Shown: positions 9,596-63,262 of the stretch, piece after piece
Position numbering within the stretch: position 1 is the stretch's first letter
How the letters are laid out: each line of letters opens with the position of its first letter
NCBI GenBank assembly: GCA_039810585.1
Contig: JBDHXF010000003.1
Location: 93,946-157,945, forward strand
DNA from: Chlorobiota bacterium
Lineage (GTDB): Bacteria; Bacteroidota; Ignavibacteria; Kapaibacteriales; NICIL-2
DNA: 64,000 nucleotides
Direction of reading: 5' to 3'
Made by a program: the position numbers and the translations under genes
Notes under the pieces: generated by a model
The model's database searches: none
The model's input: only the letters and a program-made list of their open reading frames with translations
What the model was told of the DNA's origin: nothing

Positions 9596-9596
9596 G

Positions 9597-10028: not shown

Positions 10029-10032
10029 ACAC

Positions 10033-11091
10033 TTAGTGTTTCTGTGGTGTTTTTGACGAACCGGACTTCATGTTCGAATCACGAAGCATGCGAACTGTGC
10101 CGTCTGCACATCCCAGAATGATGGTCTTGCCATCGCTTGTCACGTCTACACCCCAAATCTCGGAATCGATTTTTTGAGAGTAGAGGAGTTCTCCGGTGAC
10201 AATGTTCCACATCTTTACGGTCTTATCAAGGCTTACGCTAATCAACGTGGTATTGTCTTCAGCAAAGGTAAAATCCTGGATCAAATCTTCGTGCGCGTTG
10301 ATCGTGCGAACCAATTCGCCACTATACATTTTCCACACCTTGATCACGCCATCTTTATCACAGGAAACTAGATAGTTGTCGTCGAATGAGAAGAGGCAAT
10401 TCAATACCGGAGCTTGGTGACCCGGACCACTGAGTTGGATAACAGGATCCTTCTTGCCGATTTCGGTTGACCAAATATTGATCTGATAGTCATCGCCACA
10501 AGAAGCGATGTATTTGCCGTCATAGGAATAGGCTACGCCGTTTACAGCAGCGGTGTGTCCGCGGAGTGTCTTCACTTCGCCCAATGTACACTTATCGTCA
10601 TCATGGCAAATCAGGTGAGTATCCCACAACTTGACCGTTTTGTCAAACGATCCGCTACAGATATAGGCGCCGGTGTCCGTCTGGCTGTAGTACACGCTGC
10701 TTACTTCGGCATTGTGACCGCGAAGAACGGCAACTTGCTTTCCACTTTCAACATCCCACACGCGAACTGTTCCATCAGAACTCGCGCTGGCCAGAGTTTT
10801 GTCATCGCCCGAAAACGATACGTTGTTCACTTGGCCAAGATGGCCGCGAAGTGTATGCAGTTCTTTGCCGTCGGGTAAACTCCAAATCTTGATTGTCTCA
10901 TCAACACTGCAAGTGGCAAAACGTGTGTTGGCCTGATTGACGAAAACGCCCAAGACTTCATCGTCATGATGGCCAATTGTCGTCATGGTATAGGTGCGCT
11001 GCTGTGCAAATCCCTGCATGCTCACGAGTGCTCCCAGCACACAACACAAGGCACATCGCAGAATCAATAATCGCGGCATAGTGTACTCCAA
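10033..11091 (-). CDS. Periplasmic WD40 beta-propeller protein
   Basis: 352 aa with a signal peptide. Seven GH..WD-type repeats are visible (IKIWSL..LRGH, VRVWDV..LRGH, and so on). Confidence 0.8.
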   Translation of the reverse strand: MEYTMPRLLILRCALCCVLGALVSMQGFAQQRTYTMTTIGHHDDEVLGVFVNQANTRFATCSVDETIKIWSLPDGKELHTLRGHLGQVNNVSFSGDDKTLASASSDGTVRVWDVESGKQVAVLRGHNAEVSSVYYSQTDTGAYICSGSFDKTVKLWDTHLICHDDDKCTLGEVKTLRGHTAAVNGVAYSYDGKYIASCGDDYQINIWSTEIGKKDPVIQLSGPGHQAPVLNCLFSFDDNYLVSCDKDGVIKVWKMYSGELVRTINAHEDLIQDFTFAEDNTTLISVSLDKTVKMWNIVTGELLYSQKIDSEIWGVDVTSDGKTIILGCADGTVRMLRDSNMKSGSSKTPQKH

Positions 11092-27024: not shown

Positions 27025-27237
27025 ACAGAACCAATGTACATGGCAGTCACCTTCGTGTTCGCCACAAACACGCACCCCTTCTTCTAGGGTGCTCAGTCTG
27101 CCCATGCATCACAAATAGTGCGCCAATTATTGGAGTGTAATGTCCACGATAAGCAATCATTCATCATCCTCTCGACCCACCGAGAAGAGGAAAAAAGGGA
27201 AGAGCGGTGGGTAGTACGGGACGTCCAGGAAGTCAGA

Positions 27238-30581: not shown

Positions 30582-30689
30582 ACGCAGTCACCTTCCTCGT
30601 TGCATGAATATTTGCTACGTTCACCAATAATTCCTGAGTACCAACACGGTGTTGACGTGTTACTCATTAGTGAACCGATTGTTCGTGCC

Positions 30690-33600
30690 ATGCCAGCATT
30701 TTTCCGTCTCTTCCTGTTTGCCTTCTTCGTATTGGGCCTTTGCGCTTCCGCACAACAGGCACGCGTGTCGTCGTCTAATGATGATCATGGCTGCACCATT
30801 GACCTTACAAACCTCAGTACGGCCAACGATGCCATCGAACAACCTCTTCGCGCACTCATCGCCCATCCCGAACGCACTGACTCGATTGAAGCAGCGATAG
30901 AACGACAGGTTTGTCGGCGCTTCTTCATCGTCGTCCCTTCCTCCGGCGCGCTCAGCGCTACGCTCCAAAACATACAAAGCGTTGAACGTACTCTGGGATC
31001 TGATGGCTCTGCTTTGCATCACACGATTGGTGTTGACATTCGCAGATTAGGAATCGTACGGGGAAATTCAGTAGCCGTTATCGTCCTCCATTGTTTTGAG
31101 AGTTCGACGCTACGGTCGTCAGTGCGGGTGCTGAATTCCTGCACCGTTAAGGTTCGATTCGGGGATTCGCTTGCGAGGGGGTCCGGTGGCCTGGTGCATC
31201 GCTTTCCGATGCAAGTCTTAAATAGCGAGTATCTGCACGGTGATAGCCGTGACGTGCGATTAGCCGCCATGTCAGCCGCACTTCGCCTCATAACGAGTGA
31301 TTCCACGCAACTTCCCATCGAAGTGAGCACGCACAAGGACGGCGTTGCTCGCATTCGAGGCGTCGATATCCTTTCCATTCACCCTTCGTGGCAAGGTCAA
31401 GCGTGTTCGCTGTTGCATTTGCGGTATAAGGGACAAGAGCAATGGCTCGCCTGCAGCGATAGTGTGCTTTTGCCGACAACGGATCTGTATTTCCGGGGTA
31501 GTCATGCTTCGGGAGATACCACGTGGTACAGTCCGTTTTCCAACAACTGCGTGTACTATCTTACGCTAGAAGCAGACCATTCGTCCAATCGCTACACTCT
31601 GCGAACATCAGGCGGAACGTCCACAATTCTCAACTCACTCGTTATCGACCGACATTGTGAGGAAGAACACGAGTACGTGCAAGGATATTTCCGCGGATCG
31701 GATGCCAACGATTTCTTCTTAACGGAAACCGCCGAAGGGGAGAAGTGGGTGTGGAGGATGGTGAATCGCTATACACCGTTTGAACATCGCCAAGTTTTTG
31801 TCACGAACGACGCCTTGAACGATTCCGTTCATGTACACATTGAGTACGAGTCGCTGAACGACCTGCCGACCGTGAATCCGGACAAAAGGGTAGTTCTTAC
31901 GCTGAACGGAGACGTTATACATGACGATACATTCGATGGTGCGACGGAAAAGCGACTCGATATCAATGTGCCACGAGAAGTGTTCCGCGGCGGATTGTGT
32001 GATCTTCGATGTGTGTCCATCGGCACCGATACGACTGCTCTAAACTACTCTGAATCGCAAGCCTTTGATTACTACTCTATACGCGCTCGCAGTGAAGCCT
32101 ATGCCATCAGCGGATCGCTGGAAGGCACTGTCGAAGCACCTCCTTCGTCAGCGCTTCAGGTACGATTGCTACGGTCTGAACGTTCAGTAGTTCTGGATAG
32201 TGTCACTCACCAATGGCAGATCGTCAGCGGTCAACCGGGTTTGAGTATGATGCTTCAGGTGCGAAATGGCAGTCGTTCCTGGTCGTCTTGCATTATAAAC
32301 GGGAATACTCTTCTTTCGAGCGCCCTTCGGGCTTGCTCCATATTTGTTTATCATCCTGCCACGGATTCTACCGAGTGGTGGACAGGCAGTAGCTCCGACC
32401 GCGACGGTGCTTTGATTCTCCAGCGTGTACATGAGGGTGACTATGTAGTGGTTCTGGCTAATGACGACCGAAGTTTAGCGCCACAGATCCAGTCAGCTTT
32501 AAGTGGAGTCGGAATTACCAACAGTGCTCAAAAAGTTGCTACCAATGTGTACTATGCCTATCGCCGCATTCAAGGTGGCGCACAGGCGGTGGAGCATTCC
32601 GATGCGACAGAGTTAAGCGATCAAGTGTTTGTGGACGATGCATCAGTCCACGCTTGGCAGGCTCTTGTTCCACTCGCAGCCGGAATGCAGCACCTGATGA
32701 TAACCTCAGAAGATAGTGTTGAGCTCTGCGGACTTCGCCGCATTTCGGATGTTGATTTGACGGATACAACGCTGTCGGCTGATTATATCGTCATCACGCA
32801 TCACACCTTCGAGTCGGCAGCTCGAGACTTAGCTACATTCCGAGCAGGCCAGGGACATCGAACACAAGTGGTGTTTGTTGATGATATCTACCGTCAGTTT
32901 GGCGACGGACAAAAGAGTCCGCACGCAATTCGAAATTTTCTCCGCTATGCCTATGACCATTGGTCGGCTCCGCGCGTTCATGACGTGCTGTTGTTTGGAG
33001 ATGCGAGCTGGGACAATCGATCCATTCGTAGCGGCGACACGATGACGGATTATGTTCCGAGCTACGGCAAGCCCGTGAGTGACGTCTGGTTCAGTTTTGT
33101 CGACGGATCCGATGAATTGAGCGATTTCAATGTTGGTCGTTTGCCGGTACAAAACCTCCGGCAAGCACAGGACTTGGTACGAAAAATCAAGCGGTATGAC
33201 TCTTTGCCTCCCGATTTGTGGTGGAAGAGTTTCCTCTTCGTGTCCGGAGGGCAGACCGAAGCAGAGAAGTTGGATTTTCTTCAGTACAATCAGTCGTTTG
33301 AAAACCAAATTTACTCTGACGATTATTTTTTCCGTTCCAATTCGGTGTGCGGTGATACCACCAATGCCGCCTCGTATTTCCAGGTGAACAACGCCGGCTA
33401 CTCGGTTTCTAATCACATCAATAAAGCGGTTAATGGGCAGGGAGTGGCGTGGATTAACTTTATTGGGCATGGAAGTCCGACACTCACTGATGTGAACGAC
33501 TGGACAGACAGCTCACTAGCCAACGTCGATCGACCATTTGTGCTCGCCACCTTGTCATGCCAAACGGCAGCCTTTGCCGAAGCAGAAGTGTCGTGTATCG

Positions 33601-36479
33601 ATGAGAATTTCCTTTTGGCAAAGGACAAGGGTGCCATCGCCGCGATTGGTGCAACCGGATATGGAATACCGGACGTGCAGTCTATTGTGATGACGAAATC
33701 TTTCTTCGAGCTTTCAACTTTTGGGTCGCGCAACTTGGGTGACATCCTCAGCAATTCAACTGCATTGATTGCAACTTTCAGCGATATCACCTCGCACGAT
33801 GTCTACCTACAGAGTTGCCTTCTTGGCGATCCACTGAGTCGTATTCCCTTCGATACAGTTGCTCATCCGGTTGTACTCGAGCGTAGCCTCCGTATTGAAG
33901 ATAGGAGTGGCAGCCAGTATTTGAGTGACGATCAAGATTCTGCGTTTGTTCACGTTGAGCTGTTTAATGCGGGAGTCCACGGAGATACAGCCACGGTCTT
34001 TTTCATTCATACCTTTCAGAACAAGACGGATACGCTTGTGCGGAGTTTTGATGATGTGTGTATGACAATGCCTACTGACGCGGCATTTTCCATTTTTGGA
34101 CAGAATGGCATTCATACACTTCGTATCGAGGTTCAAGCAGATCCGCGATGGAGTCCATCGTCACGGTTTGGATCGGTGTACACAACGTCGTTCAATGTCT
34201 TCTCTCCGCGCCCGTTGCCAATCGATCCCTTTCCGTATTGGAATGTAAGTGCCGAACATCCGCTGCTGCGCGTGATATCAACCACGAAAGAAGGAGATAG
34301 CGTTCGCTTCGAAGCACAGTTGCGACAAGACTCTGTAGTGCTAGATTCTGTCGGCTACGACAACAATTCGGCGTTGCTTGTCGATGAATGCTTCGTGCAG
34401 TGGCAGCCACCGCTTCACCTCCAAGAAGGGCAGCGATACACTTTCGCGATTCGGTCCCGAAGCGAATTGAGTGGTAAAGAGAGTGCTTGGTTGGAGATTC
34501 CATTCAACGCAGGAGCGGACTCAGACCGCATGTCGATACGCATCCGGAACACGGTACGTCTTGATTCCGCTGCATGGACAAAGTCAGATCGATGGCGCGT
34601 AGACACCACCGGTTCGGAGCCACAGTACGTTTTGCATGACGAGCTTCGCTACGAAATGAGATCCTCGGTAGGATATGGGTACTATGACAGCACCGGCCAT
34701 CTTATCATCCCGATTCAACCCACATTTAAGATTGCCCTGAACGGTGTTACCTTCGGTGATCGTGATGACGTGCGCGGCTTCAATGTCCGCCTGGTCAATA
34801 AACGCACAGGAATGGTAGAGGCAGTGCGAAACTTCGACTGCTTTGTGGACCGTGATTCGTGCGATACCTGTTTCAACGGCTCCGGTAGAACCTTGGTTCG
34901 TTTTCTGCGCGATTCCGTTCCACAGGATGATTACCTCTTCCTGGCTATTTGTGGAAATACCTACGGAGACGTGTTTGTAAACAGAGATCTTGATTCCTTG
35001 CATGAAGTGCTCAAGCGCTATGGATCAGTAGTTGCCGATTCCGTCGTTCCTCCACATTCGTATTTGATGATAGCGGCTGCCGACGATTCGACGCAGCTGG
35101 TTGAGCGCATTCGATTGGATACGCTCAGTCCTCATGCGGCGGAGGATACCGTGTTTGCCTCCGGATCCGTTGCACTACACCCGGATAGTGGTTGGGTGAC
35201 CAGTCCTGTGTATGGACCGGCAAGGCGCTGGACGCGGGCTCAGGTCGAGGGCGAATTATCAGACAGCGTAGCGGCTTTAGCAGTGACCGTCTTCGGTTTG
35301 CGCGACAATTTTTCCGAACCACGAGTTGTCATGTCTGACACTGTTGCGGAGATGGATTTGTCGTCCATCGATGCCACTCGGTATCCCTATATACAATTTG
35401 AGATCCACGTCGTACGGCGAAGCCTGCTCCGGGATCCGGCTTTCCAGGCAATTCGTGTAGATCTCGAACCACTGCCGGAATTAAGTGTTGTTCCGTCGTC
35501 CTACGTGCTAGATGCAGATAGTGTGTTGCGCGGTGACACGATTTCCATCGTAGCCGCGGCCAAGCGAATCTCTCCACGAGCGGTCGTGGACAGTGCCATA
35601 CTCGTCATGCAACGAAACCCTGTGAGCAATACAGGATTTAGCAGCGTAAAGAGTTGGGCGTTCACACAGCCGGGTGATACCGTGACTCTGAACGTGGGAG
35701 ACACAGTTAGCACCTTGCAATTCGGAGACTACACTCTCAACAGTTTTGTTGTCAACCCCGACTCACTTATCCCCGAACTGTATCGGTTCAACAATAGTGC
35801 GCTGCGATATCAAACGGTGATCAACGATACAGAGGCACCACGACTTGAGGTTCACATTGACAGTTTGCCCACGTACGACGGCATGACGGTTGCACGCCAA
35901 CCACTCATTCGATGCCTCATGCGTGACAATTCGCGGATGCCAATCGTGGATTCCTGGCACCTGAGCGGACTCGTGAACGACTCCGCGATCGAGCAGCAGC
36001 CGGCCTATCGTTTTGTGGGAAGTGCGGATATACAGAGTCTCGCGTTTGCTCCGCCGGAAACTCGAGCCTACGTGGAGTTTCGACCAACCTTGCATAACGG
36101 CACGAATACTCTTGAGCTGAATGCCGTTGACTACTTTGGGAACGAGACCGACAGTGTACTGCATCTTTATGTTGATAAAGATTTGTCGGTACAAAAGTCA
36201 AACGTGGTTCCCAATCCGATGAACGAATCGGCACGGATTTACTACACTCTGTACGGTCCATTTGAGCGACAACTCGTCACCTTGGAAATCTACGACGCCC
36301 GTGGTGAACGTGTGCGCAGCATGCTCATCAATGCTCGCTTGGGAACGAACGTAACGATTTTTAATGGCTGTGATGATGAAGGGCGCAAACTCCTGCAAGG
36401 CTCGTATTACTACCGCATTTTTGCATCGCAAAGTGGGTCGATTGGTTCGGAGAATGGCATGTTCATTATTCTTCGTTGA
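30690..36479 (+). CDS. Giant peptidase C25 family (gingipain/PorU-like) protein with a T9SS C-terminal domain (about 1,930 aa)
   Basis: The signal peptide is MPAFFRLFLFAFFVLGLCASAQQ. The C25 core is YIVITHHTFESAARDLATFRAGQG...VVFVDDIYRQFGDG..SPHAIRNFLRYAYDHW. A catalytic His (WINFIGHGSPT) and Cys (LATLSCQTAAF) are present. The C-terminus reads VVPNPMNESARIYYTL...LEIYDARGERV...GSYYYRI, which is CTD-like. Confidence 0.6.
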   Translation: MPAFFRLFLFAFFVLGLCASAQQARVSSSNDDHGCTIDLTNLSTANDAIEQPLRALIAHPERTDSIEAAIERQVCRRFFIVVPSSGALSATLQNIQSVERTLGSDGSALHHTIGVDIRRLGIVRGNSVAVIVLHCFESSTLRSSVRVLNSCTVKVRFGDSLARGSGGLVHRFPMQVLNSEYLHGDSRDVRLAAMSAALRLITSDSTQLPIEVSTHKDGVARIRGVDILSIHPSWQGQACSLLHLRYKGQEQWLACSDSVLLPTTDLYFRGSHASGDTTWYSPFSNNCVYYLTLEADHSSNRYTLRTSGGTSTILNSLVIDRHCEEEHEYVQGYFRGSDANDFFLTETAEGEKWVWRMVNRYTPFEHRQVFVTNDALNDSVHVHIEYESLNDLPTVNPDKRVVLTLNGDVIHDDTFDGATEKRLDINVPREVFRGGLCDLRCVSIGTDTTALNYSESQAFDYYSIRARSEAYAISGSLEGTVEAPPSSALQVRLLRSERSVVLDSVTHQWQIVSGQPGLSMMLQVRNGSRSWSSCIINGNTLLSSALRACSIFVYHPATDSTEWWTGSSSDRDGALILQRVHEGDYVVVLANDDRSLAPQIQSALSGVGITNSAQKVATNVYYAYRRIQGGAQAVEHSDATELSDQVFVDDASVHAWQALVPLAAGMQHLMITSEDSVELCGLRRISDVDLTDTTLSADYIVITHHTFESAARDLATFRAGQGHRTQVVFVDDIYRQFGDGQKSPHAIRNFLRYAYDHWSAPRVHDVLLFGDASWDNRSIRSGDTMTDYVPSYGKPVSDVWFSFVDGSDELSDFNVGRLPVQNLRQAQDLVRKIKRYDSLPPDLWWKSFLFVSGGQTEAEKLDFLQYNQSFENQIYSDDYFFRSNSVCGDTTNAASYFQVNNAGYSVSNHINKAVNGQGVAWINFIGHGSPTLTDVNDWTDSSLANVDRPFVLATLSCQTAAFAEAEVSCIDENFLLAKDKGAIAAIGATGYGIPDVQSIVMTKSFFELSTFGSRNLGDILSNSTALIATFSDITSHDVYLQSCLLGDPLSRIPFDTVAHPVVLERSLRIEDRSGSQYLSDDQDSAFVHVELFNAGVHGDTATVFFIHTFQNKTDTLVRSFDDVCMTMPTDAAFSIFGQNGIHTLRIEVQADPRWSPSSRFGSVYTTSFNVFSPRPLPIDPFPYWNVSAEHPLLRVISTTKEGDSVRFEAQLRQDSVVLDSVGYDNNSALLVDECFVQWQPPLHLQEGQRYTFAIRSRSELSGKESAWLEIPFNAGADSDRMSIRIRNTVRLDSAAWTKSDRWRVDTTGSEPQYVLHDELRYEMRSSVGYGYYDSTGHLIIPIQPTFKIALNGVTFGDRDDVRGFNVRLVNKRTGMVEAVRNFDCFVDRDSCDTCFNGSGRTLVRFLRDSVPQDDYLFLAICGNTYGDVFVNRDLDSLHEVLKRYGSVVADSVVPPHSYLMIAAADDSTQLVERIRLDTLSPHAAEDTVFASGSVALHPDSGWVTSPVYGPARRWTRAQVEGELSDSVAALAVTVFGLRDNFSEPRVVMSDTVAEMDLSSIDATRYPYIQFEIHVVRRSLLRDPAFQAIRVDLEPLPELSVVPSSYVLDADSVLRGDTISIVAAAKRISPRAVVDSAILVMQRNPVSNTGFSSVKSWAFTQPGDTVTLNVGDTVSTLQFGDYTLNSFVVNPDSLIPELYRFNNSALRYQTVINDTEAPRLEVHIDSLPTYDGMTVARQPLIRCLMRDNSRMPIVDSWHLSGLVNDSAIEQQPAYRFVGSADIQSLAFAPPETRAYVEFRPTLHNGTNTLELNAVDYFGNETDSVLHLYVDKDLSVQKSNVVPNPMNESARIYYTLYGPFERQLVTLEIYDARGERVRSMLINARLGTNVTIFNGCDDEGRKLLQGSYYYRIFASQSGSIGSENGMFIILR

Positions 36480-36484
36480 TACAT

Positions 36485-37039
36485 ATGACTCATCGAGGAA
36501 CTCCTTCACTCATCATTCTTTGCCTTGCGAGTTGTTGCCTTCTTCACGCCCAACAAATACGGTTTGAGAGCGATCCTCTGCCCTTCATTCTCAAAGGATG
36601 GGTTGCTGCACTTGCTGTTGGTTCCGAAACGTGGAGTGTACGTATTCTCGATGCTCGAGTTGACAAACCACAGTGGCTTCTTCCGTCGTCCGTCGATAAC
36701 AACCGCATTCACTCGGACGCAATTCTTCTGGATTACAGCATTCCTTCCGTCACATTCCTGAAGACCGACGGAATGGCGTTGAGCGTTGGACTCGTTCGAT
36801 GGGCCGGAACGATTCGAAACAAGGAGCTGGACGAAACGAGAGCCTACGTTTGCGAGTTAGTCAGTGTAGGCGGCGCACTGTTCTATTTTCTCGATTCCCA
36901 CTTTTACCTCAGTCCGTGGGCGGGTTTGCACCTCTTGGTAGCCGGCGATAGAGAGCTCTCATTTTCCCACGGAAGCTATTCGATTCCACGTCTAAATCCC
37001 GAAGCTAGCGTTCGCATTGGCTATCGTTTCTCAATCTAA
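36485..37039 (+). CDS. Small outer-membrane beta-barrel-like protein (about 185 aa)
   Basis: A signal peptide with Cys is present (LASCCLLHA). The sequence alternates hydrophobic residues and ends RIGYRFSI with an aromatic residue, typical of OMPs. It overlaps the stop of the C25 gene. Confidence 0.4.
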   Translation: MTHRGTPSLIILCLASCCLLHAQQIRFESDPLPFILKGWVAALAVGSETWSVRILDARVDKPQWLLPSSVDNNRIHSDAILLDYSIPSVTFLKTDGMALSVGLVRWAGTIRNKELDETRAYVCELVSVGGALFYFLDSHFYLSPWAGLHLLVAGDRELSFSHGSYSIPRLNPEASVRIGYRFSI

Positions 37040-42860: not shown

Positions 42861-43874
42861 ATGAAGCGAGCAATTGGAATTGTGGTGGTTGGAGTGGTAC
42901 TCTTGGCTGCAGGCTGTGCATGGTACTTACGCTCACCCTTGGCGATCAACAGTGTTACAGACGTGTATATCCCAAAAGGAAGTAGTGTTTTCAAAGCCAC
43001 GCAAGTGGTGCAACAAAGTCATTGCATTCGCCACCCCCTCTTGTTCAGACTCATGCTCAGTGCATGGTGTCGCCTCAACTCGTCCACCATTTACGCCGGT
43101 TCGTATCGGTTTAACGTAACGAACACCCACTTTCAACTTTTAAGGGCCTTGCTGAGTGGAAAGCAGGTATTGAAGGTGCGAGTGACCTTTCCGGAAGGAC
43201 TTCCAAGCTGGCGCTTTGCGTCCATTCTCCAAAAAAACGTCGGGATTGATTCAGCGGCCTTCATGAAGGAGATGATGAACGACTCGCTCATCAAGGCGCT
43301 GGGTATCCAAGCTACCTCGCTTGAAGGCTATCTCAAACCGGATACCTATGAGTACTTCTGGAAGCAGCCGACGCAGGAGATTATCGAGGGGCTTGTGAGC
43401 CAACAGAACAAACTCTGGAATGAGAAGTTTCAAGCGGATGCCTTGCAGCAGGGAAAAACGCGCGCGGAAGTCATGACCATGGCCAGCATCGTGGAGGCAG
43501 AAACTCCGCAGGCGGACGAGAGAGCCCGCGTAGCGGGCGTGTATGAAAATCGTCTTGCGAAGGGAATGAGACTGGAAGCTGATCCCACCGTGCAGTATGC
43601 AATCGGACCAGAGGCACGGTGGTTGTCGCTTGCCGATCTGCGTTTCGAGAGTCCCTACAACACCTACTTGCACAGCGGACTGCCACCAGGACCAATCAAC
43701 AACCCCGGGGAGCTTAGCATTGCCGCCGCATTGCATCCGGAGGTGAATTCATACTACTTCTTTTGTGCCAAAGGCGACCGCTCTAACAGCCATTATTTCT
43801 CCTCAACCATCAACGAGCACCACGTCAACGTGATGCGCTACCGACATAACCTGAGCTTGTCTCACCAGGATTGA
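42861..43874 (+). CDS. mltG: Endolytic murein transglycosylase (YceG family)
   Basis: 337 aa with an N-terminal TM helix. MASIVEAETPQADERARVAGVYENRLAKGMRLEADPTVQYA is the YceG core. Confidence 0.85.
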   Translation: MKRAIGIVVVGVVLLAAGCAWYLRSPLAINSVTDVYIPKGSSVFKATQVVQQSHCIRHPLLFRLMLSAWCRLNSSTIYAGSYRFNVTNTHFQLLRALLSGKQVLKVRVTFPEGLPSWRFASILQKNVGIDSAAFMKEMMNDSLIKALGIQATSLEGYLKPDTYEYFWKQPTQEIIEGLVSQQNKLWNEKFQADALQQGKTRAEVMTMASIVEAETPQADERARVAGVYENRLAKGMRLEADPTVQYAIGPEARWLSLADLRFESPYNTYLHSGLPPGPINNPGELSIAAALHPEVNSYYFFCAKGDRSNSHYFSSTINEHHVNVMRYRHNLSLSHQD

Positions 43875-43910: not shown

Positions 43911-45434
43911 TTAGTCCCGAATCTGATATTCGCGTCGTTCCGATGATTTTTTATACCCGTTGATTGCGCGAACAGAGAATGCACTTTGCTGGGGTGTGAA
44001 TTGGAAGAGCTGCACGTGTATGTTGAAGCGCGGGTCGTAGGAGTAATCGCCCATGCGTTCTTGCACCTTGGATATGGTCGGAACACTAATCTCAAGCTTC
44101 ACTCGAGCCCTTACGTCGCCTTCAATTCCGTAGGAGCGAGTGCGTACCCACACCTGACCATTCTGCTGAGAGATGTCGATGATTTCGGGAGAGGGAAAGG
44201 CGAGCACGGGGATCTGAATGGTTTGACCGATTTTACGACCATTCAACGTTCGTTCGAAACTAAACACACGCGACGTGTCTTCAGGTCGCGGCTTGAAGTT
44301 GAACAATTCTCCGCTAACACTCGAGAGGATTTCCGTCCCGTGCTCGTCACGAAGAGTGGCACCGGCGGGAAGTCCGCTGATCACCGGAACATTGGGGTTG
44401 AACGTGTAGTTCAAACCGGGATACATGTGCTGTGGTACTTGCGGTGCATCCAGATTCATGGCCAGCACGCGAAACGAAACGCTTGTGTCCTTTTTATCGG
44501 ATATTCGTCGAGCGGACACGGTGTACAGCGCCATACCGGACGGCGGCGTTGTACCGGTGACGACCAGATCGGGTCCTTCAAATCGGTAGGACGCATTAGC
44601 GCCACTCACCCGGAAACTATCGCACTCTCGCTGCGGATCCGCACCATACACTCGAATGCGATTCTCAAACGGCTGATATGCAATCATCTTGATGATTTTC
44701 TCACGAGGCTGCAAGGAAAACTCACCAACCGGTGCGGGTAAAAAGCGTGGCTTATTGACTTCAGCCAGGAGCTCTTCGTATCGTTTGCGGAACGTGCTAT
44801 CGCTTTGTGCCAAAATCTGTGGGTTTAACTCCGCGAGTGTACTGCCGGCACTTCCACCATCCACGTACACCAGAGCCAGCGTGAACTTGGTTTCCGCATG
44901 AATCTGGATTTCTCCCTCATCCTGCATGGCATCACTCAAGTAACGACGCTGCTCGTCAGTGAGTCCCGGTGGTAGAAGTGGACTGGCAGTGGCGCTCACG
45001 CTCACTTGATAGAGTCGATTCTTTCCCTCGCTCAACGGGGGATTCCAGCTGAATTGTACACTTCCTTCATCACCACGACCAAGGATGTGAAATGAAGAGG
45101 AGCTGTTGGTTTTCTGCGACGACAACTGAACCACATTTTTATACGATTGATCTTCGATCCGAAAATCGTATTGAAGATCCCGAACAGCGCCGGAGTGGTA
45201 AATGGTATTGAGCGAATCGCAATCCAGGATGACCGTGGAGTCGCCCGTGCGAATCACTCGGCACATCAGCACCGTGTGTTCCGGTTGTAAAACAAAGGAC
45301 GACTGCAAGAGGGAACTGATCAGCGAGGTGGCTTGTTTGTCTTCATGCTTCTTATCAGGAATAAGGAGCACCAGTGCTGCCAAGTACAGCACAAAGTATA
45401 TTTCGACAAATCGTTTGGGTCTGGTCTTCTTCAC
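43911..45434 (-). CDS. GldM/PorM-like protein (candidate T9SS motor-complex periplasmic component)
   Basis: 507 aa. A short cytoplasmic N-terminus and a single TM helix (KRFVEIYFVLYLAALVLL, compare GldM RQKMINLMYLVFIAMLAL) are followed by a long periplasmic beta-rich region. It lies 53 bp downstream of the GldL-like gene. Confidence 0.45.
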   Translation of the reverse strand: MKKTRPKRFVEIYFVLYLAALVLLIPDKKHEDKQATSLISSLLQSSFVLQPEHTVLMCRVIRTGDSTVILDCDSLNTIYHSGAVRDLQYDFRIEDQSYKNVVQLSSQKTNSSSSFHILGRGDEGSVQFSWNPPLSEGKNRLYQVSVSATASPLLPPGLTDEQRRYLSDAMQDEGEIQIHAETKFTLALVYVDGGSAGSTLAELNPQILAQSDSTFRKRYEELLAEVNKPRFLPAPVGEFSLQPREKIIKMIAYQPFENRIRVYGADPQRECDSFRVSGANASYRFEGPDLVVTGTTPPSGMALYTVSARRISDKKDTSVSFRVLAMNLDAPQVPQHMYPGLNYTFNPNVPVISGLPAGATLRDEHGTEILSSVSGELFNFKPRPEDTSRVFSFERTLNGRKIGQTIQIPVLAFPSPEIIDISQQNGQVWVRTRSYGIEGDVRARVKLEISVPTISKVQERMGDYSYDPRFNIHVQLFQFTPQQSAFSVRAINGYKKSSERREYQIRD

Positions 45435-45487
45435 GCGTCTACGCTGGTGTCCTTATAGCTATGGCGGGGATTCGAAAAAGAGTACGG

Positions 45488-46075
45488 CTAGGATGAGCGT
45501 TCCTTGCTTTGCAGATTCGTTCGCAAGATGCTCTGAACCTCGCGTTGGACTGCGGCTTCAATTTCCTCGCGCTGCAGTTTATTGGCAGCCACATTGAACG
45601 ATTGCACGGTTTGTTCGAGTCGCTCCAGACTGTCGGCTGTTTTACTCATGCTCTCAAGAAGCGCCGGATTTGGGGCCACTGCTTTGGTAGCTGCTTCGGT
45701 ATGCTGGCGGAGCAATGCCATGACTTCAGCTTGCTCTTGCGTGAGTTCACGCAGAGCGGCAACAGCTTGCTCCATATGCATATTCACATCGGCGTAATCT
45801 CGGCCAATCTCGCCGATTTCTCGCAGGACGTCCGCGTGTGTCTCGTCCTCGCCTGGTGAATCGTCGTCGGTATTGTCCTCCGTTGGTGAAAAGAACATCA
45901 CCACGAACATCACTACAAGTAGGAGCGCTTCAAACAAAATGCTACCAAGCACGGTGGAATCGGTGACACGATCGGTAAAACGTCGAATCCCAATCATCAC
46001 CAACAGCATCGCGGCGCCAAAATAGACGAAGGAGTTTATGGTGGAGTAGTAGAAACGGTTCACCACTTCTTGCAT
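45488..46075 (-). CDS. GldL/PorL-like protein (candidate T9SS motor component); the ORF may extend to 46288
   Basis: Two N-terminal TM helices are predicted. EALLLVVMFVVMFFSPTED resembles GldL EALIFALSAFEPVEDE. An acidic linker and a cytoplasmic coiled coil follow. The start at MQEVVNRFYYS parallels GldL MALLSKKVMNFAYG. Confidence 0.45.
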   Translation of the reverse strand: MQEVVNRFYYSTINSFVYFGAAMLLVMIGIRRFTDRVTDSTVLGSILFEALLLVVMFVVMFFSPTEDNTDDDSPGEDETHADVLREIGEIGRDYADVNMHMEQAVAALRELTQEQAEVMALLRQHTEAATKAVAPNPALLESMSKTADSLERLEQTVQSFNVAANKLQREEIEAAVQREVQSILRTNLQSKERSS

Positions 46076-46310
46076 CCATAAGGACGTTCCGCGAAGTGGT
46101 CCAAGAGGGTGCAGAACCGTGACTTCCACATTGGAATAGCGGTACACTTCTCTCTCGGTGCTGCAAATACGCCACATGGTACTCAAGGTGCTGAGCCCGC
46201 CTAACTGCTTATCGTATCTGAGCTCGCGAAATATTTCTCGCAAGACACGGCGTCCTTCTCGAGACGCCATCGAACGAAGTTCTTTCATGGTGTCAAGATA
46301 GCAAAAAAGA

Positions 46311-46352
46311 TCACGCTGCTGGAGACGGCTTATTCATGCGCGCTGCGCGCTT
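46311..46352 (+). repeat. Dispersed about 45-nt motif, copy C (ctggagacggcttattcatgcgcgctgcgcgc), in the 5' region of the GldL-like gene
   Basis: Compared with copies A and B. It is inverted relative to local transcription. Confidence 0.45.
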
Positions 46353-46489
46353 TCGGGAGCAACCGTGACTACGCCAAGAGTTACCGGCCGTCTTGTCTTT
46401 CCTCAGCTAAAAAGGGGATGGGACATACAAAAACGGAGGAAACCGAGCTATCGTGTTCCCTCCGTGTGACCAATCGTGGCCAAACTCTC

Positions 46490-49144
46490 CTACGAGCCAT
46501 GTGTTACCACAATGCGAACTGCTTGTTGTACACCATTGGACATCCGTAGCATTATCGTGTACATGCCGTTAGGCAACGTGCTGACGGAGAAGCCGCCATC
46601 ACTCAGTTGAGAAAGTTCCGTTCCCAAACCGACAAGCGAATAGGCCGTGGCGCTTACACATCGGTTCGATTCATTTGCCAAACGCACGTGAAAATCACTG
46701 GCAGCAGGCAAGGGATAAACCACGCATGAAGACGGGCTCGGGGACTCTGCGACATCCGATGGATGGTAGACGCCTTCGCCTTCCAAAAGGTTGGACGGCT
46801 TCCATACGACCACGTTATTGAAGATGTCCAGTAAGGCAATGCGATCTGCATTGCCATTCCACATTAAGAGATCGTACACAGGAGTGCGTACCAACCACGA
46901 TGCGATCTTGTCGGAGTTTGTGCTAAAGAGCGACAAGCTGTCTCTGGCATCCGACGAACCCACCACGTAATAGTTCTTCTGTGGTCTAAAGAATGCCCGA
47001 TTTTTTGTGTTGTGTTGTGTGATCGTGGCAGTACGCGTGTTTTCTCGAATGAACGAACCGTTATACACAAACGTGCAGGTGCTGTCAACCTCGCTGAACA
47101 AGGTACCAAAGGGAGCGGTGGACAATGTGCTCATGACCTTTCCGTTCGATAACTGGAGCAGAGCGTTGTCCTTCGTGCTGATGTACGACAGATACGTACC
47201 GTTTGGTGAGAGCACAAGCTCGCGCAATGGATACACTGTATGGTACACCTTCACAATGGTGTCATGATTGGAACTAACAGACCAAATATCACCTTTCACA
47301 TCACCGAGATAGTAGTTTTGACTGAGGGGATTCCAGATTGCAGCACTGACCAAGTATTGCATGTGCAGGCTGTCCAGGAGCATGCCACTACTCAAGTCGT
47401 AACGAAACACATTGCCCTTCGAGTCAGCCAGGACGAATGAGGAACTATCAGGCGAGAAGCTCATGAAGACAGAATTGGAGTCGTACTCGTGAATTGTGCT
47501 GAGCTGCGAGGTATTGAGAAGAGACACCCATTTCTGTGTACTGTCTACGCTCAGGTTAAGGATAACAGCGATGGAATCGAGGGGTGACCACTTAATTGTT
47601 TGTGCCGTAGGAAACTCTCTGGTGTTGAGCTGAGTGGTGGATGGAACGTCCCAATAGCGTAAGGCATGGTCGGCTGTTAGTAGATGGTCACCATCCGGAC
47701 TGATCGCGATGGACCGCAGGCGGTCATACAATTCGTCGTCCGGAAACGCTTTGACTAAATCGCCGGTAAATAAATTGTACCGATACAATTTATTATTCAG
47801 GATAAACAAACTCGTTCCATCCGGACTTGTGGTATAGTACGATTCCAGCGAGACTGAGGCCACCGATTGAGCTGTTGCCAAATCCACAATGCGATAATTC
47901 CACGAACTATCCAGAACGAGAATTGCTCGATTGCCACTGAGGAATTTCATCGACGAGTGGTCGTTATAATTCACGTTGGGAGGAAAATCAAGGTGAATTT
48001 GATAGATACCCTGAAATGTTTTCGTGTTTATCACCGTTAATGTGTTGTCCGGAGTCAAGTAGGCCAAGAAGCGAGAATCTGAACTGAAGGTGTAGGCAAT
48101 CATGTCGCCTGGGCTGAAACTTCGGATCAAGGTATTATTCAAGTTCCAGAAGTCGAAATAGAAATCCGGGCTTACCAACGTCACTAAACTATCCGCAGAA
48201 TTGACCGCATAGTCAATCAATAAATGTGGGTTGGTAATAGTTTTTTGAGCGCCGTGGATATCCGTGTAATAAAACGTGTGATTTCCAAAGGTGCAGAACA
48301 CCTTGCTGTCCGGTATCCACGTGCCGTACTGGTGCGTTGGAATGGTGTCTGATACATACGACTTTGACTGCAAATCAAAGGCATGCCAATACGATTCTGC
48401 CCGGTACTCGATGTCTGTACCCAGAGTGTCAGATAAGCGATCCACTCGAAGCATCACCAGCGAATTATCCGACGTCCAGCTATTGGAGTTACAGAAAATC
48501 TTGAAGTGAGCTAGGAAATAGGACGAATCGGCAAGCCCGTGTAAAGTGTCCGGTGGTCGGACGTAGGTGTACGAAGGCCACACGCTATCACGGAGCATGA
48601 TTTGTTTGTGTTCTAAATCAACAACATAGAACAAGTCATTTTTTGTGCAGATAACGGAATGACTAAAATCCGGTGACATATACACACTACGAATGGTGTC
48701 CTCAACGCTAAAGTCCACTTGTACAGCTCCGCTCAGTACATTTACAAGGTTTAGCGTTTTGACTTGCGGACAATACAAAAAGTGGGGAATTCCGTGCAAT
48801 GTTCCGAAACGATAGATTGGTTGTGCATCCGCCATCTGAACATTGAAATAGTCGCGGGAGACCAGAGCCTTTCCGGTGGTGGCGTTCCAATTGCGCACCT
48901 GGATGTGGGTAGTCGTGATGGCTTCGTCGCGCGTGCGCACTTCGGCGCTGTAAGCTAAGCTGACGCTGTCGCCATTGGAGCTACTGATAAAAGCACTGAC
49001 GTCGTTATTCGAGCGATAAAAACTCGGTATCGTCCAGACGCTGTCGGCGGCGGCACGAAGTATAGATGTCCCGCAGAGAAGCGTGGCCAGTATCAAAAGG
49101 ACCGCTGGTCTGAGCAGGAAGGTGGTGGCAGAAGACTTTCGCAT
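46490..49144 (-). CDS. Large secreted beta-propeller-repeat protein with a T9SS C-terminal sorting domain
   Basis: About 885 aa. The signal peptide starts at the internal M (MRKSSATTFLLRPAVLLILATLLCGTSILRAAA). Repeated SPD(G/S)..L motifs are present. The C-terminus reads VVYPLPAASDFHVRL..AYSLVGLGT...LPNGMYTIMLRMSNG. Confidence 0.5.
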   Translation of the reverse strand: MRKSSATTFLLRPAVLLILATLLCGTSILRAAADSVWTIPSFYRSNNDVSAFISSSNGDSVSLAYSAEVRTRDEAITTTHIQVRNWNATTGKALVSRDYFNVQMADAQPIYRFGTLHGIPHFLYCPQVKTLNLVNVLSGAVQVDFSVEDTIRSVYMSPDFSHSVICTKNDLFYVVDLEHKQIMLRDSVWPSYTYVRPPDTLHGLADSSYFLAHFKIFCNSNSWTSDNSLVMLRVDRLSDTLGTDIEYRAESYWHAFDLQSKSYVSDTIPTHQYGTWIPDSKVFCTFGNHTFYYTDIHGAQKTITNPHLLIDYAVNSADSLVTLVSPDFYFDFWNLNNTLIRSFSPGDMIAYTFSSDSRFLAYLTPDNTLTVINTKTFQGIYQIHLDFPPNVNYNDHSSMKFLSGNRAILVLDSSWNYRIVDLATAQSVASVSLESYYTTSPDGTSLFILNNKLYRYNLFTGDLVKAFPDDELYDRLRSIAISPDGDHLLTADHALRYWDVPSTTQLNTREFPTAQTIKWSPLDSIAVILNLSVDSTQKWVSLLNTSQLSTIHEYDSNSVFMSFSPDSSSFVLADSKGNVFRYDLSSGMLLDSLHMQYLVSAAIWNPLSQNYYLGDVKGDIWSVSSNHDTIVKVYHTVYPLRELVLSPNGTYLSYISTKDNALLQLSNGKVMSTLSTAPFGTLFSEVDSTCTFVYNGSFIRENTRTATITQHNTKNRAFFRPQKNYYVVGSSDARDSLSLFSTNSDKIASWLVRTPVYDLLMWNGNADRIALLDIFNNVVVWKPSNLLEGEGVYHPSDVAESPSPSSCVVYPLPAASDFHVRLANESNRCVSATAYSLVGLGTELSQLSDGGFSVSTLPNGMYTIMLRMSNGVQQAVRIVVTHGS

Positions 49145-49349
49145 ATAACCTCCGTTTGTGATTGGGGGAAAAGTAGCGAAGAACACTTTAACAACAAATG
49201 TCAAGTGTCACTAGTTCGTGTCACGATTTGAATTATTTCGACAAAAGATGAAATAAACACTGGAATGTGTACGAGAAATCTGACAGTGCAGGCAGCGAAG
49301 CTGCGCGCGAATCATGAGTATCTGTTTTTAGGATCGTATGCTCTAAAGT

Positions 49350-50438
49350 CTACGTCTTGGTAATTCGCAGATTGACGAGCGCGATGAGGAGGAACAATCC
49401 GTTAGCAGACCAGGCGACTATTTGGGGCGAGAGGTTTAATTCAAAACCCATGGACTGAGAGATTTTGGTAAACACCAAATACACGAAGGAAACGATCATG
49501 GCAGTTGCAATTTGAACGGCGATGCCGCCTTTTTTACGAATCGAAGCAAAGGGGACTCCGAAAAGGACGACGATTAGATCGGCGAAGGGAAATGCGTATT
49601 GTCCGAAATAGTCGATGCGCTTCATGCGTACATCTTTGCCACCTCGCTCCAGAATGCTGATGTATTCGGCAAGTTCAGGGAGCGTCATTTCGTCGGTTGT
49701 TCGTTGCAGGCGCATGATACTTGCATGGGACATTTGCAGGTGAATCGTGTCGTTCACAAATGGTGCAACGGAAATATCGCCGGCCGTACTAACACTCCGA
49801 CGGTATCCATCGCTCAGCGACCAACACTGTTGCAGTGAATCCCAATGAAAGAGTTTGGCGTCAACTCGCCGTGTGATTCTTGGATGCTTTTCCGAACTGT
49901 AATCCTCCACGGCAATCATTGCACCACTCTTGCGCGTTTCGTCGTACGAATTCATGATGACGTTTCGCAGGGGATTGTCGCGAAAGTACAGGTTGTACAA
50001 TTGCGTGGGCGACTCAGATCCGCCTTTGCCAAGAAAACGCCGATCCAACTCCAACATCTTGGTAGTTGCTCGTGGCACGACCCATCCATTAAAACCGAGT
50101 TGTGCGATACTGAGCAGTGTGCTCACTATCACGATCGGGAGCATCAAACGGTACAAGCTCAAACCCGCGGTTTTCATCGCCGTTATTTCATTGGCACCGG
50201 AGTGTCGACCTATGGCAAACAAACTTGCCATCAGCATTGCGATGGGAAAGATCAGTTTGATAATCTGCGGTAAAAAGTAGAAATAGTACGAGGCAATCGC
50301 GAAAGCGCTTGCTTTGTGGTCCAGAAAGCCGTCTAAGCTTTCCATGAGGTTCACCACCACGAAAATCACGCACAAGGCCACGACCGAAAAGACCAGAGTC
50401 TGAACGAAGCTGCGTAGCAGATAACGATCGAGTTTGTT
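49350..50438 (-). CDS. LPS export ABC permease of the LptF/LptG (YjgP/YjgQ) family
   Basis: MNKLDRYLLRSFVQTLVFSVVALCVIFVVVNLMESLD is the family N-terminus. There are six TM helices and a periplasmic beta-jellyroll insert. Confidence 0.8.
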   Translation of the reverse strand, partial: NKLDRYLLRSFVQTLVFSVVALCVIFVVVNLMESLDGFLDHKASAFAIASYYFYFLPQIIKLIFPIAMLMASLFAIGRHSGANEITAMKTAGLSLYRLMLPIVIVSTLLSIAQLGFNGWVVPRATTKMLELDRRFLGKGGSESPTQLYNLYFRDNPLRNVIMNSYDETRKSGAMIAVEDYSSEKHPRITRRVDAKLFHWDSLQQCWSLSDGYRRSVSTAGDISVAPFVNDTIHLQMSHASIMRLQRTTDEMTLPELAEYISILERGGKDVRMKRIDYFGQYAFPFADLIVVLFGVPFASIRKKGGIAVQIATAMIVSFVYLVFTKISQSMGFELNLSPQIVAWSANGLFLLIALVNLRITKT

Positions 50439-50668
50439 CATACACAAGCGAATTGCAAAGAAAACCGGACATTCTTCGACGGCAGGGTGGCGGCGAAGAC
50501 GTGGCGCTGACAAAAATACAGCCCTCGCGCAGACAAAAGACCTACAGCGCGCAGAGGCACTATTGGATCGCGGCTCGCCGGATCGGTCTCGGGAGTGCTT
50601 GATAATTCCCGATTTAGCGCTATCTTTGTAGTCACTCTCGTTGCGGGATTTGTTTCACTAGATGTCCA

Positions 50669-60622: not shown

Positions 60623-63262
60623 CTACTGCACATAGGTGTTGGTGCGCTTCTCAATTTTTAGGTCGTGAAGAACCGACGCGAGGGGACTAAAGCTCAGGTA
60701 GAATCCACGCACATATCCCGTGGGATACCAGGTTACGTCCAGTGCCCAACAATGGATAATCTTGCGCAGGGTGATACTGGGTGCCACGATACTGTGATTA
60801 AATACATCGTAGTTGATTCCTCCATTGACGGACCAAGTCGGCGTGAAGGAGAAGTTCATGGTGGACTGTAAATTGAGCGATTGCGTAGCAGGTAAAGCCG
60901 AATACGGTTTAGAGCTGCTGTAGCTCAGATTAATACTCACGTTCCAGGGAAAGGACAGGGGAGTGTAGCCGGGACTATTCTCGCCGAACACATCACTCGT
61001 CTGTTGCTGGTAGTTCATCCGGCGACTGAAACGGTCGCCAATCGACTCGGCACTCGTGTCGGCGCGGGTGGTGTCGCTATGCCCTTGCGCAAATGAGGAG
61101 CTTTTAGAACCAAAAGTAGCCGTGAGATAAAACGAGACGGCGGTTACCCGCAGCGGTGTCTTGCCAGCAGATGCCAGGTACTGTCCGGTTTGACGGTACA
61201 GTCCCGTGGCACGACCATTCGTATCCAGCACCGGAGCCTCATCGTAGGGTGTGGTGCTAAAGTCGGTGGTAAAGTTCAGACTACCGATGGCTGGAGTTCG
61301 CACGCTCCAGTGAATATCGCTGAGGCGCATGGAGTCCTTGGTGAAGTTGTAGTTACCGGACACTCCAATGCGCGCCAGTTCAAGCTTCTTGTCTGCGCTA
61401 TCGCCAAACACTTTGGCGTCCAGACTGTTGTCGAGTGACCAGTTGAGCAGTAACGATTTTGCTTGAGAGGCAATGCCGCCACCGTCCAACGCGAAGCGCG
61501 AATAGCGAACCGACTGTCCTTCACGATTAAGAGAGTCGGCCGGGAGATGGTAGTTCGAATAAAATCTGGAGTCCGTACTTAAATCCGGCGTGAAACTCAG
61601 CCCGATCGAGGGCATTATGGTATGACGCAGCGCAAATGATCCCAAGTTCAGAGGTGTTCCGTACAGTGTGGTCCTGGTGTTGAGGCCAAAGCTGTAATTG
61701 TACTCATAGAACAATCCGTTCTCAACCGCATCAACAGCGGATTGCGTGGCAGTGTCGTAACGGCGATCCGCAATGCGTCTCTGGTACACATTAGCAAGAA
61801 AGCTAATACTGGGAGTGACGGTAAACACTCCAAGTTTAGGAGAAATACTGATTGTTGGAGTGTGACGCCATACCGCAGAGTGCGAATCGTTATAGGTTGA
61901 ATCGAACACAACCACGGTGTTCGATAAGCCGGTGGAACTGTCGAATTCCACACTGTCACGTTGCCGCACATTGAGGGAATGCCTGTAGGTGGTGTTGACC
62001 TGTGAAGAATAGCTTAGCGAAATGTCATTGTACCAGGCGGACGAACCTGTAGTCTTGAAAGGAAAAAGCGCGGGAATGGAAAAGTTTAGGCTTGGTGATT
62101 GGTCGTATGTTTTGGCTTGAAGGTCTTGATTGCGCGTATAGTTCAGACCAATCGCCATGTTGTTATCGAAGGTGTGCGACAATCCGGCTGAGCTAAACAC
62201 ATTCTGTTGGATACGCTGAGCAAGCGAGCTTAAGGTGTTGTTCGCATAGTCGTTACTCTGAAAGTTCACATTGGCGTTGAAGCGCGTTTGAGGATCGAAG
62301 ATTTGATTATGCACCCATCCAAGTTTATACTCTTTGCTATACGGCGTAAGAGGATTGGGTCGTACGTTGGCATAGCTCAAGTCCAAGTGTCCGTCAAGAA
62401 CATAACGCAACACATAATTCCACTTATTGTTGATTTGGATTCCGCCTTTGCTATACAGATCGGCACTGATTTGGGTGTCGTAGTAATCGCTGAGAGCGAA
62501 GTAGTAGCCTAAGTTCTGCAAGGTCACACCACGATTAGCGTCAAAGAAGGGTCGCGGTATGATCAAGCCCGATTGCCGTCCGCTCTTATTGGGAAAGAAT
62601 AACCCAAAGGGTAGGTACAACACCGGAACATCTTGCACATAGAGGTACACTTCATCCATCAGAATGCGATCGCCGGGAATGACTTTCATTCTTGGCGAGC
62701 TGAAATAGAAATGCGGGTGCGGTGCATCGCAGGTGGTATAACATCCGTTCTCGACAAACATTGTTTGATCCGGATTTCGCCTAATACGAGAGCCGCTGAA
62801 GTAGGCATTGTCAATGGTGGTTTCGCCAACCGACACCGTGCCTGTTTTATTCTTGAAGTTGTACTTAATCTGAGCACCGGCATATTCCTTTCCGGCGTCG
62901 GTGAACTTTGGGTAACCAATGGTTTTTCCGCTGCTATCCTTTACCGGTTCAGAGTTCATGAGCCCGCTGTCGAAGTACATTTCAATGACTTCCGATTCCA
63001 GTTTCTGACTTCGAAAGCGAGCCTGCGAACTTCCTCGAAGTCGCATCCGTTTGTCCTTGGCATAAAAGATCACTGAATCTTTCGCCGAGTAACTCACAAC
63101 GGTGTCAATACCACTCCTCGACCGACGAGTGCTGTCGCCCGGGATGCTCACCCTCGTCGTACCTAACGAATCGTTCTGATGTACAATCAATGAGTCGCGC
63201 AATGCGTCAGCATGCGCGTAAGAAGAAGTCACCAGCAGACTCAACACACTCACTACAATCAC
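60623..63262 (-). CDS. Large outer-membrane protein, possibly LptD/OstA-like
   Basis: 879 aa with a signal peptide. The N-terminal region resembles an OstA-like fold (GCYTTCDAPHPHFYF). The long C-terminal region alternates Y/F/N-rich beta-strands. This is a tentative assignment from architecture only. Confidence 0.35.
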   Translation of the reverse strand: MIVVSVLSLLVTSSYAHADALRDSLIVHQNDSLGTTRVSIPGDSTRRSRSGIDTVVSYSAKDSVIFYAKDKRMRLRGSSQARFRSQKLESEVIEMYFDSGLMNSEPVKDSSGKTIGYPKFTDAGKEYAGAQIKYNFKNKTGTVSVGETTIDNAYFSGSRIRRNPDQTMFVENGCYTTCDAPHPHFYFSSPRMKVIPGDRILMDEVYLYVQDVPVLYLPFGLFFPNKSGRQSGLIIPRPFFDANRGVTLQNLGYYFALSDYYDTQISADLYSKGGIQINNKWNYVLRYVLDGHLDLSYANVRPNPLTPYSKEYKLGWVHNQIFDPQTRFNANVNFQSNDYANNTLSSLAQRIQQNVFSSAGLSHTFDNNMAIGLNYTRNQDLQAKTYDQSPSLNFSIPALFPFKTTGSSAWYNDISLSYSSQVNTTYRHSLNVRQRDSVEFDSSTGLSNTVVVFDSTYNDSHSAVWRHTPTISISPKLGVFTVTPSISFLANVYQRRIADRRYDTATQSAVDAVENGLFYEYNYSFGLNTRTTLYGTPLNLGSFALRHTIMPSIGLSFTPDLSTDSRFYSNYHLPADSLNREGQSVRYSRFALDGGGIASQAKSLLLNWSLDNSLDAKVFGDSADKKLELARIGVSGNYNFTKDSMRLSDIHWSVRTPAIGSLNFTTDFSTTPYDEAPVLDTNGRATGLYRQTGQYLASAGKTPLRVTAVSFYLTATFGSKSSSFAQGHSDTTRADTSAESIGDRFSRRMNYQQQTSDVFGENSPGYTPLSFPWNVSINLSYSSSKPYSALPATQSLNLQSTMNFSFTPTWSVNGGINYDVFNHSIVAPSITLRKIIHCWALDVTWYPTGYVRGFYLSFSPLASVLHDLKIEKRTNTYVQ

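Follow-up and report, generated by a model that had tools for sequence, protein, structure and literature searches.

A conserved two-gene module of Kapabacteria and Ignavibacteria as a candidate counterpart of the GldLM/PorLM motor

What powers type IX secretion in bacteria with a translocon and no reported motor is the question raised by a pair of adjacent genes in a 64,000-nucleotide stretch of a Chlorobiota bacterium genome (GenBank assembly GCA_039810585.1, contig JBDHXF010000003.1, positions 93,946 to 157,945), hereafter the window. [quoted passage not shown] Ignavibacteria and other sister lineages have the translocon and many cargo proteins with a C-terminal domain (CTD), reportedly without motor or ring. 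A BLAST-based survey found SprA, PorV and Plug and no other T9SS protein in Ignavibacterium and Melioribacter (PMC11705866), and a review lists Ignavibacteriota among the phyla possibly having the system (PMC11285876). Our search of the literature returned no paper that describes a GldLM-like motor for Ignavibacteria or Kapabacteria. A preliminary description of the window had pointed to a GldL-like and a GldM-like gene without gldK or gldN, preceded by a T9SS cargo gene. The explanation that we favour, with moderate confidence, is that the proteins of this pair, here called L and M, form an inner-membrane complex that corresponds, in Kapabacteria and Ignavibacteria, to the proton-driven GldLM/PorLM motor and most likely energises type IX secretion without the PorK/N ring.

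The open reading frames (ORFs) of the pair are adjacent on the minus strand (Table 1) and no K- or N-like gene lies near them, as the preliminary description stated. The AlphaFold2 (AF2) model of the L-like protein (predicted local distance difference test, pLDDT, 86) consists of a small N-terminal domain, helices 64–104 and 110–132 that form a transmembrane (TM) hairpin, a disordered acidic linker and, at 148–265, a helical hairpin in the cytoplasm. TM1 extends approximately from residue 84 to 104 and TM2 from 110 to 134, and the motif FEALLLVVMFVVMFFSPTED is present in the protein; the two TM helices, the motif and the cytoplasmic helical region were thus recovered as described before. Overlooked in that account was a conserved cytoplasmic N-terminal domain of about 65–80 residues (approximately 1–65 in the window protein), which is absent from GldL. 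A word-indexed search found 165 proteins of the L family at E ≤ 0.001. Conservation extends along the entire protein, and the invariant residues cluster in the TM hairpin (V88, Y89, G91, A92, E120, L124, F128 and P135). The glutamate E120 of TM2 (codon 45929..45931) is invariant in 59 of 59 homologues, and R103 is nearly so (58 of 59). Homologues of both L and M come from metagenome-assembled genomes (MAGs) of Candidatus Kapaibacterium, Kapabacteria and Ignavibacteria; where their sources carry a label at all, it is nearly always hypothetical protein, and some sources name L homologues 'methyl-accepting chemotaxis protein'. For the M protein of the window, an exact search of a contig index returned no record.

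The relationship between L and GldL was assessed with five solved GldL/PorL sequences taken from the PDB. A profile of 59 L proteins searched against all PDB sequences matched GldL 7sax_C at E 5e-4, in two stretches that follow the same order in both proteins: L 83–127 on GldL 10–54, which is the TM region, and L 147–239 on 106–197 in the C-terminal region. Alignment of the L family to the five solved sequences with hhalign gave a probability of 87% (E 4e-6; L 84–233 on GldL 9–202), colinear over TM1, TM2 and the C-terminal helices, with a GldL profile that contains 5 sequences only. The reversed GldL control reached 3.6%; the TM region alone gave 60.7% vs 0.2% for its reversed control, and the tail alone 18% vs 1.5%. 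In a stricter control, the GldL columns were shuffled 100 times within the TM1, loop, TM2 and tail blocks, which keeps the composition and the order of the TM blocks. The permuted scores were 16.4 ± 3.3 with a maximum of 27.3, and none of the 100 reached the real score of 46.7 (z 9.1).

Functional residues of GldL are among those paired by hhalign. GldL E49 falls on the invariant E120, and GldL G16/A17 fall on the invariant G91/A92; of further TM residues that matter for function in F. johnsoniae GldL, K27 is paired with R102, which adjoins R103, Y13 is one position off the invariant Y89, and H30 has no counterpart. We consider the L family a probable, though not certain, remote homologue of GldL/PorL, placed outside the curated family.

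The M-like protein has a basic N-terminus, a single N-in TM helix and a mostly-β periplasmic region of about 480 residues, in agreement with the earlier account. Its AF2 model (pLDDT 80) places the TM helix at 12–24 and a periplasmic helix at 28–46, followed by four immunoglobulin (Ig)-like β-sandwich domains, with a disordered linker at 193–236 and without a helical D1 domain. The TM helix, at residues 9–25 (codons approximately 45360..45410), carries the motif [RK][RK]x[VI][ED]IYF[VI]LY[LI]AA, and no other segment of the protein is as conserved: its residues E/D11, I12, Y13, F14, L16, Y17 and A19 do not vary among sequences whose identity is otherwise only 27–71%. Positions 7 and 8 are basic in 21 and 19 of 22 members, respectively, with varying register, and the invariant E/D11 comes next. 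A TM helix conserved to such an extreme implies that M has a specific partner within the membrane. The boundary of the family is sharp: an exhaustive search with a hidden Markov model (HMM) over 1.84 billion representatives returned 228 clusters, 205 of them below 1e-10, and nearly all full-length members have 470–550 residues.

Comparison of M with GldM/PorM gave a different picture from that of L with GldL. The PDB profile search with the M family returned nothing at E ≤ 10, and hhalign against the aligned solved GldM/PorM sequences gave 0.18% for the whole protein and at most 0.9% for every domain taken separately. When the TM segments alone were aligned, the score of M with GldM was reached by 4 of 100 permutations. 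Fold searches with M recovered generic Ig domains only, and GldM/PorM were not among the top matches. Judged by these comparisons, M is an analogue of GldM/PorM in its architecture and not a detectable homologue, and it should not be filed under the GldM family. The label 'GldL/GldM-like' thus covers two different cases: L is linked to GldL by probable remote homology, and M shares the GldM architecture without detectable similarity in sequence or specific fold.

The two genes form a module that is conserved across the clade. With each GTDB species represented by one genome, a scan identified 235 genomes that encode an L relative; the best 80 of these 235 are MAGs from Kapabacteria or Ignavibacteria, some of which are labelled generically or wrongly. 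The M gene directly follows L in 76 of the 82 Kapabacteria/Ignavibacteria loci; of the other six, five end at the end of a contig and one (L078) had no L ORF called. The distance from the L stop to the M start has a median of -4 nt and the genes often overlap, with starts called from the longest ORF. The order, L then M, is that of gldL-gldM. Genes similar to gldK (FGE-sulfatase) or gldN were found near the pair neither in the window nor in the 82 loci, where representatives of the recurrent neighbour clusters were scanned. The two-gene arrangement without K and N is thus the conserved state across the clade, and for this reason the proposal of a rearranged T9SS locus, one of two offered in the preliminary description, is not supported.

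Evidence for a T9SS comes from another part of the window. The PorU-like giant protein (Table 1) matches Peptidase_C25 at E 6.9e-70, the T9SS sortase model NF033707 at E 1.2e-61 (208.6 bits, with a cutoff of 420) and a PorU2-related model at 197.1 bits. T9SS parts are therefore encoded in this genome. Por_Secre_tail or FlgD_ig C-termini are present on three window proteins, and SprA/Sov, PorV, PorK and PorN are not encoded within the 64-kb window.

The gene directly before that of the sortase encodes L2, a membrane protein with several predicted TM segments, four by reading of the sequence. Homology to the L hairpin (hmmsearch 6e-12; hhalign 96.7%, E 4.6e-10) is seen in its last two helices, at approximately residues 300–360, which contain a conserved Glu in 'LLEFSML'; compared with GldL directly, L2 gave a non-significant 1.9%. 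The L2 family has at least 493 proteins, and in every other genome examined L2 is directly upstream of the giant C25 gene. L2 resembles L in the pre-TM helix and the TM hairpin and occurs in the same clade, in several genomes on the same contigs; it differs from L in two extra N-terminal TM segments, in a large cytoplasmic insert and in having no adjacent M-like gene. The PorU-like protein was considered as an M-type partner of L2 and rejected on account of its ordinary signal peptide. Loci L083, L085 and L086 are examples of L2 encoded directly upstream of a giant PorU-like C25 gene, and a class-III aminotransferase gene is a conserved divergent neighbour of the L2/PorU-like pair. At the sortase stop codon there is a 4-nt overlap with a gene for a 187-aa secreted protein (36476..37039, plus strand).

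A working model of the motor can be outlined by analogy with GldLM. L would be a ring subunit descended from GldL and very divergent from it, and its two-TM hairpins would form, as those of GldL do, an ion-conducting ring around the TM helix of M, with the invariant E120 of TM2 as the putative protonatable site. M, either replaced or diverged beyond recognition, would act as the rotating or force-transmitting shaft, with its conserved TM helix inside the L ring and its four Ig-like domains spanning the periplasm to outer-membrane components. The motor would then energise type IX secretion without the canonical PorK/N ring. Complex formation, its stoichiometry, the coupling to protons and the link to the T9SS are the parts of this model that we infer. 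A role in the T9SS appears the most likely one because the clade has T9SS cargo, a PorU-like sortase and reported SprA, PorV and Plug, without recognisable GldK, GldL, GldM or GldN.

Several results weigh against this explanation. The searches with GldL, PorL, GldM and PorM models, set beforehand as the test of the preliminary description, gave no match at E ≤ 1 for either window protein in Pfam and NCBIfam, and 59 L-family and 22 M-family members scanned singly against both collections gave only helical noise and no GldL or GldM match, which for the L members refers to the families that they matched most frequently. In the PDB profile search the tail of L scored about equally against GldL, designed coiled coils and chemoreceptors. 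A hairpin-only HMM, merged from L and L2, failed to match GldL sequences significantly (E 20 at PDB size), and a Foldseek search of the PDB with the whole L monomer was uninformative, the long helices dominating the result. The commonest upstream neighbour of the pair, and the only recurrent functional one, is lptF/G, which is not a T9SS gene. The K/N ring genes are absent nearby, so that the known output partner of GldM is missing.

The similarity of L to GldL could be convergence of two-TM proteins with helical tails, and the pair a non-motor scaffold, an adhesion-like complex or a signalling complex. The result of the hairpin-only HMM and the equal fit of the L C-terminal region to coiled-coil designs and chemoreceptor helices agree with this, as do the chemotaxis label on some homologues and the generic Ig folds matched by M. 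We regard it as improbable all the same: the profile-profile score is 9 standard deviations above the block-permuted controls and colinear over TM1, TM2 and tail, the invariant TM2 Glu and the TM1 Gly-Ala fall on invariant and functional positions of GldL, and the extreme TM conservation in both proteins argues for a specific intramembrane complex. Somewhat less improbable, although still unlikely, is a GldL-type ion-driven motor that powers another envelope process, for example lipopolysaccharide (LPS) or outer-membrane biogenesis, instead of type IX secretion. The lptF/G gene is directly upstream in 29 of the 82 loci, and in the window only the inserted cargo gene stands between; no T9SS core gene is among the conserved neighbours of the pair, M shows no detectable homology to GldM, and K/N partners are lacking. 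Yet fewer than half of the loci have lptF/G next to the pair, an adjacency that may be inherited gene order, the SprA/PorV/Plug translocon reported for the clade (PMC11705866) needs an energy source, and L2, the only other carrier of the hairpin, is tied to a PorU-like T9SS sortase gene.

It was also considered that L and M are an extra paralogous system beside a canonical gldKLMN operon located elsewhere in the genome. As the window covers only 64 kb of the genome, such an operon could lie in another part of it. This we judge very unlikely, given that Ignavibacterium and Melioribacter are reported to have no T9SS proteins beyond SprA, PorV and Plug (PMC11705866) and that no K/N-like gene was recognised among the scanned representatives of the recurrent neighbour clusters. 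A GldL-related motor for type IX secretion remains the explanation that we prefer. A more specific form of it, which we put forward tentatively and hold to be less probable than the general one, is a ring-less minimal T9SS in which a GldL-derived motor and a GldM-unrelated, Ig-only shaft would act on SprA/PorV or on the attachment complex, with L2 dedicated to the PorU-like sortase.

The positions of the pair and of the genes and signals discussed with it are given in Table 1.

Table 1. Features of the window around the L-M pair and the L2/PorU-like pair (coordinates of the window).
Feature	Position	Strand	Description
L2	29196..30530	+	444-aa membrane protein; directly upstream of the PorU-like sortase gene
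PorU-like giant protein	30600..36479	+	peptidase C25, 1959 aa; signal peptide, FlgD_ig-type C-terminal domain
mltG/yceG	42861..43874	+	MltG/YceG E 2.8e-79; convergent with the M-like gene
M-like gene	43911..45434	-	507 aa, GTG start
L-like gene	45488..46288	-	266 aa; ATG at 46288 backed by N-terminal conservation of the homologues
Terminator-like hairpin	46428..46465	-	hairpin then UUUUU, directly after the stop codon of the propeller gene
Propeller gene	46490..49204	-	904-aa ORF; probable ATG at 49144 gives 884 aa
lptF/G	49350..50513	-	LPS export permease, LptF/LptG family; Pfam E 7e-71

The gene upstream of L encodes a protein with WD40-type β-propeller matches (best E 1.2e-13) and, from the ATG at 49144, a signal peptide. 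Its Por_Secre_tail match (E 0.007, 17 bits with a cutoff of 27) and its TIGR04183 match (E 0.008) are below threshold, and the sorting-domain match covers the full model at the extreme C-terminus; the protein is a probable T9SS cargo with a probable type-A C-terminal sorting domain. The earlier description of this protein was accurate, and so was the position given for its gene; what does not hold is the significance of that position, which is incidental, as a terminator lies between the propeller gene and L and most relatives have lptF/G or another gene there. The hairpin folds at -20.7 kcal/mol (z -4.8), and none of 200 shuffles folds as well. A consensus terminator scan missed it, perhaps on account of a loop that exceeds the length permitted in the scan. 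Propeller paralogues (cluster c39) stand at the same position only in the closest relatives, L003–L005. Because the terminator separates it from L and its presence is lineage-specific, the propeller gene lies outside the conserved L-M module and was rejected as an operon member; between lptF/G and L it is an insertion specific to the lineage. In L003–L005 the same space holds one or two propeller paralogues and two 'choice-of-anchor V' domain proteins, which suggests that it is a hot spot of cargo-gene insertion.

No neighbour of the L-M pair is universal. The lptF/G-like gene (cluster c2), where it is directly upstream, is co-directional, with L identities of 42–67% and gaps often below 40 nt; its place next to the pair may reflect a functional link to LPS export or inherited gene order. 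An LptD-like gene is also present in the window (60623..63262, minus strand). The mltG gene (cluster c10), which the preliminary description had correctly placed downstream of M on the opposite strand, is convergent with M in 9 loci, so it is recurrent and not universal. The other neighbours are housekeeping genes, an efflux pump and a BamG-like barrel. A FadL-like gene upstream of L in 9 loci was examined as a candidate PorV and rejected, since it matches BamG instead (NCBIfam E 7e-61, below cutoff; L041, L044, L048, L052, L061, L074, L079, L080 and L082). These loci belong to one subclade, in which the barrel gene is directly upstream of L and is preceded by GTPase and fumarase genes.

Further groups of genes on the minus strand of the window deserve mention. 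Consecutive genes at 8888..11091 encode a WD40 propeller of 352 aa, a 143-aa protein without Pfam match and a 256-aa protein with CarboxypepD_reg and OmpA domains. Together they hold most of the domain set of the T9SS component PorE (TPR, WD40 and CRD, plus OmpA_C-like), spread over separate genes, and a MerR-type regulator is encoded just upstream of them. Two very large proteins, of 1384 and 1262 aa, are encoded at 18860..23014 and 23317..27105; one of them matches a phage-like BppL_N domain and a depolymerase C-terminal domain, and the other has no family match.

The observations of the preliminary description were therefore confirmed, and its interpretation is supported in part. With the L-M pair there is a concrete candidate for the motor that is missing from a lineage reported to have the translocon alone. 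It would also be a natural experiment on the essential parts of the T9SS, with the GldL hairpin kept, the GldM shaft replaced and the K/N ring absent. If true, a ring-less T9SS would show the T9SS motor either in its ancestral state or with an output module that was invented again independently. L/M and L2 are also two new protein families that are currently missed by genome annotation and by T9SS-prediction tools.

Among the known systems, GldL/PorL (6ys8, 7sat, 7sau, 7sax and 7saz) is the closest to L. Both are two-TM hairpins with N- and C-termini in the cytoplasm and with a tail that is cytoplasmic and helical; in both, TM1 has Gly-Ala and, at its periplasmic end, a basic residue, and TM2 has an invariant Glu; and in both the gene of the ring subunit is directly followed by that of the bitopic partner. 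L differs in a TM2 that is one turn longer past the Glu (a 4-residue gap in hhalign), in having no counterpart of the invariant H30 and of the W67/P72-E73-L74 motif of GldL, and in a gene located outside any K-L-M-N operon.

M shares with GldM/PorM (6ey4, 6ys8 and 7cmg) a single N-terminal TM helix that is more conserved than any other segment, a cytoplasmic N-terminus that is short and basic, a periplasmic region of about 480 residues with Ig-like domains, and a gene directly after the L gene. GldM has a helical D1 followed by three Ig-like domains, D2–D4, whereas M has a β-sandwich in the place of D1. The invariant R-Q-x-M-I-N..Y of GldM is replaced in M by [RK][RK]x[VI][ED]IYFxLY, with an invariant acidic residue. 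In GldM, R9 is the conserved TM arginine that faces the Glu of GldL.

The 5:2 motors MotAB, ExbBD and TolQR offer a second comparison, as they also combine a ring subunit, which is proposed for L, with a bitopic partner that has a conserved acidic residue near the cytoplasmic end of its TM helix. Their ring subunits, with three or four TM helices, have no known sequence relationship to L, and their partners carry peptidoglycan-binding or TonB-interacting domains, whereas M carries Ig repeats. We take E/D11 of the M-like protein to be reminiscent of Asp32 of MotB, Asp25 of ExbD and Asp23 of TolR.

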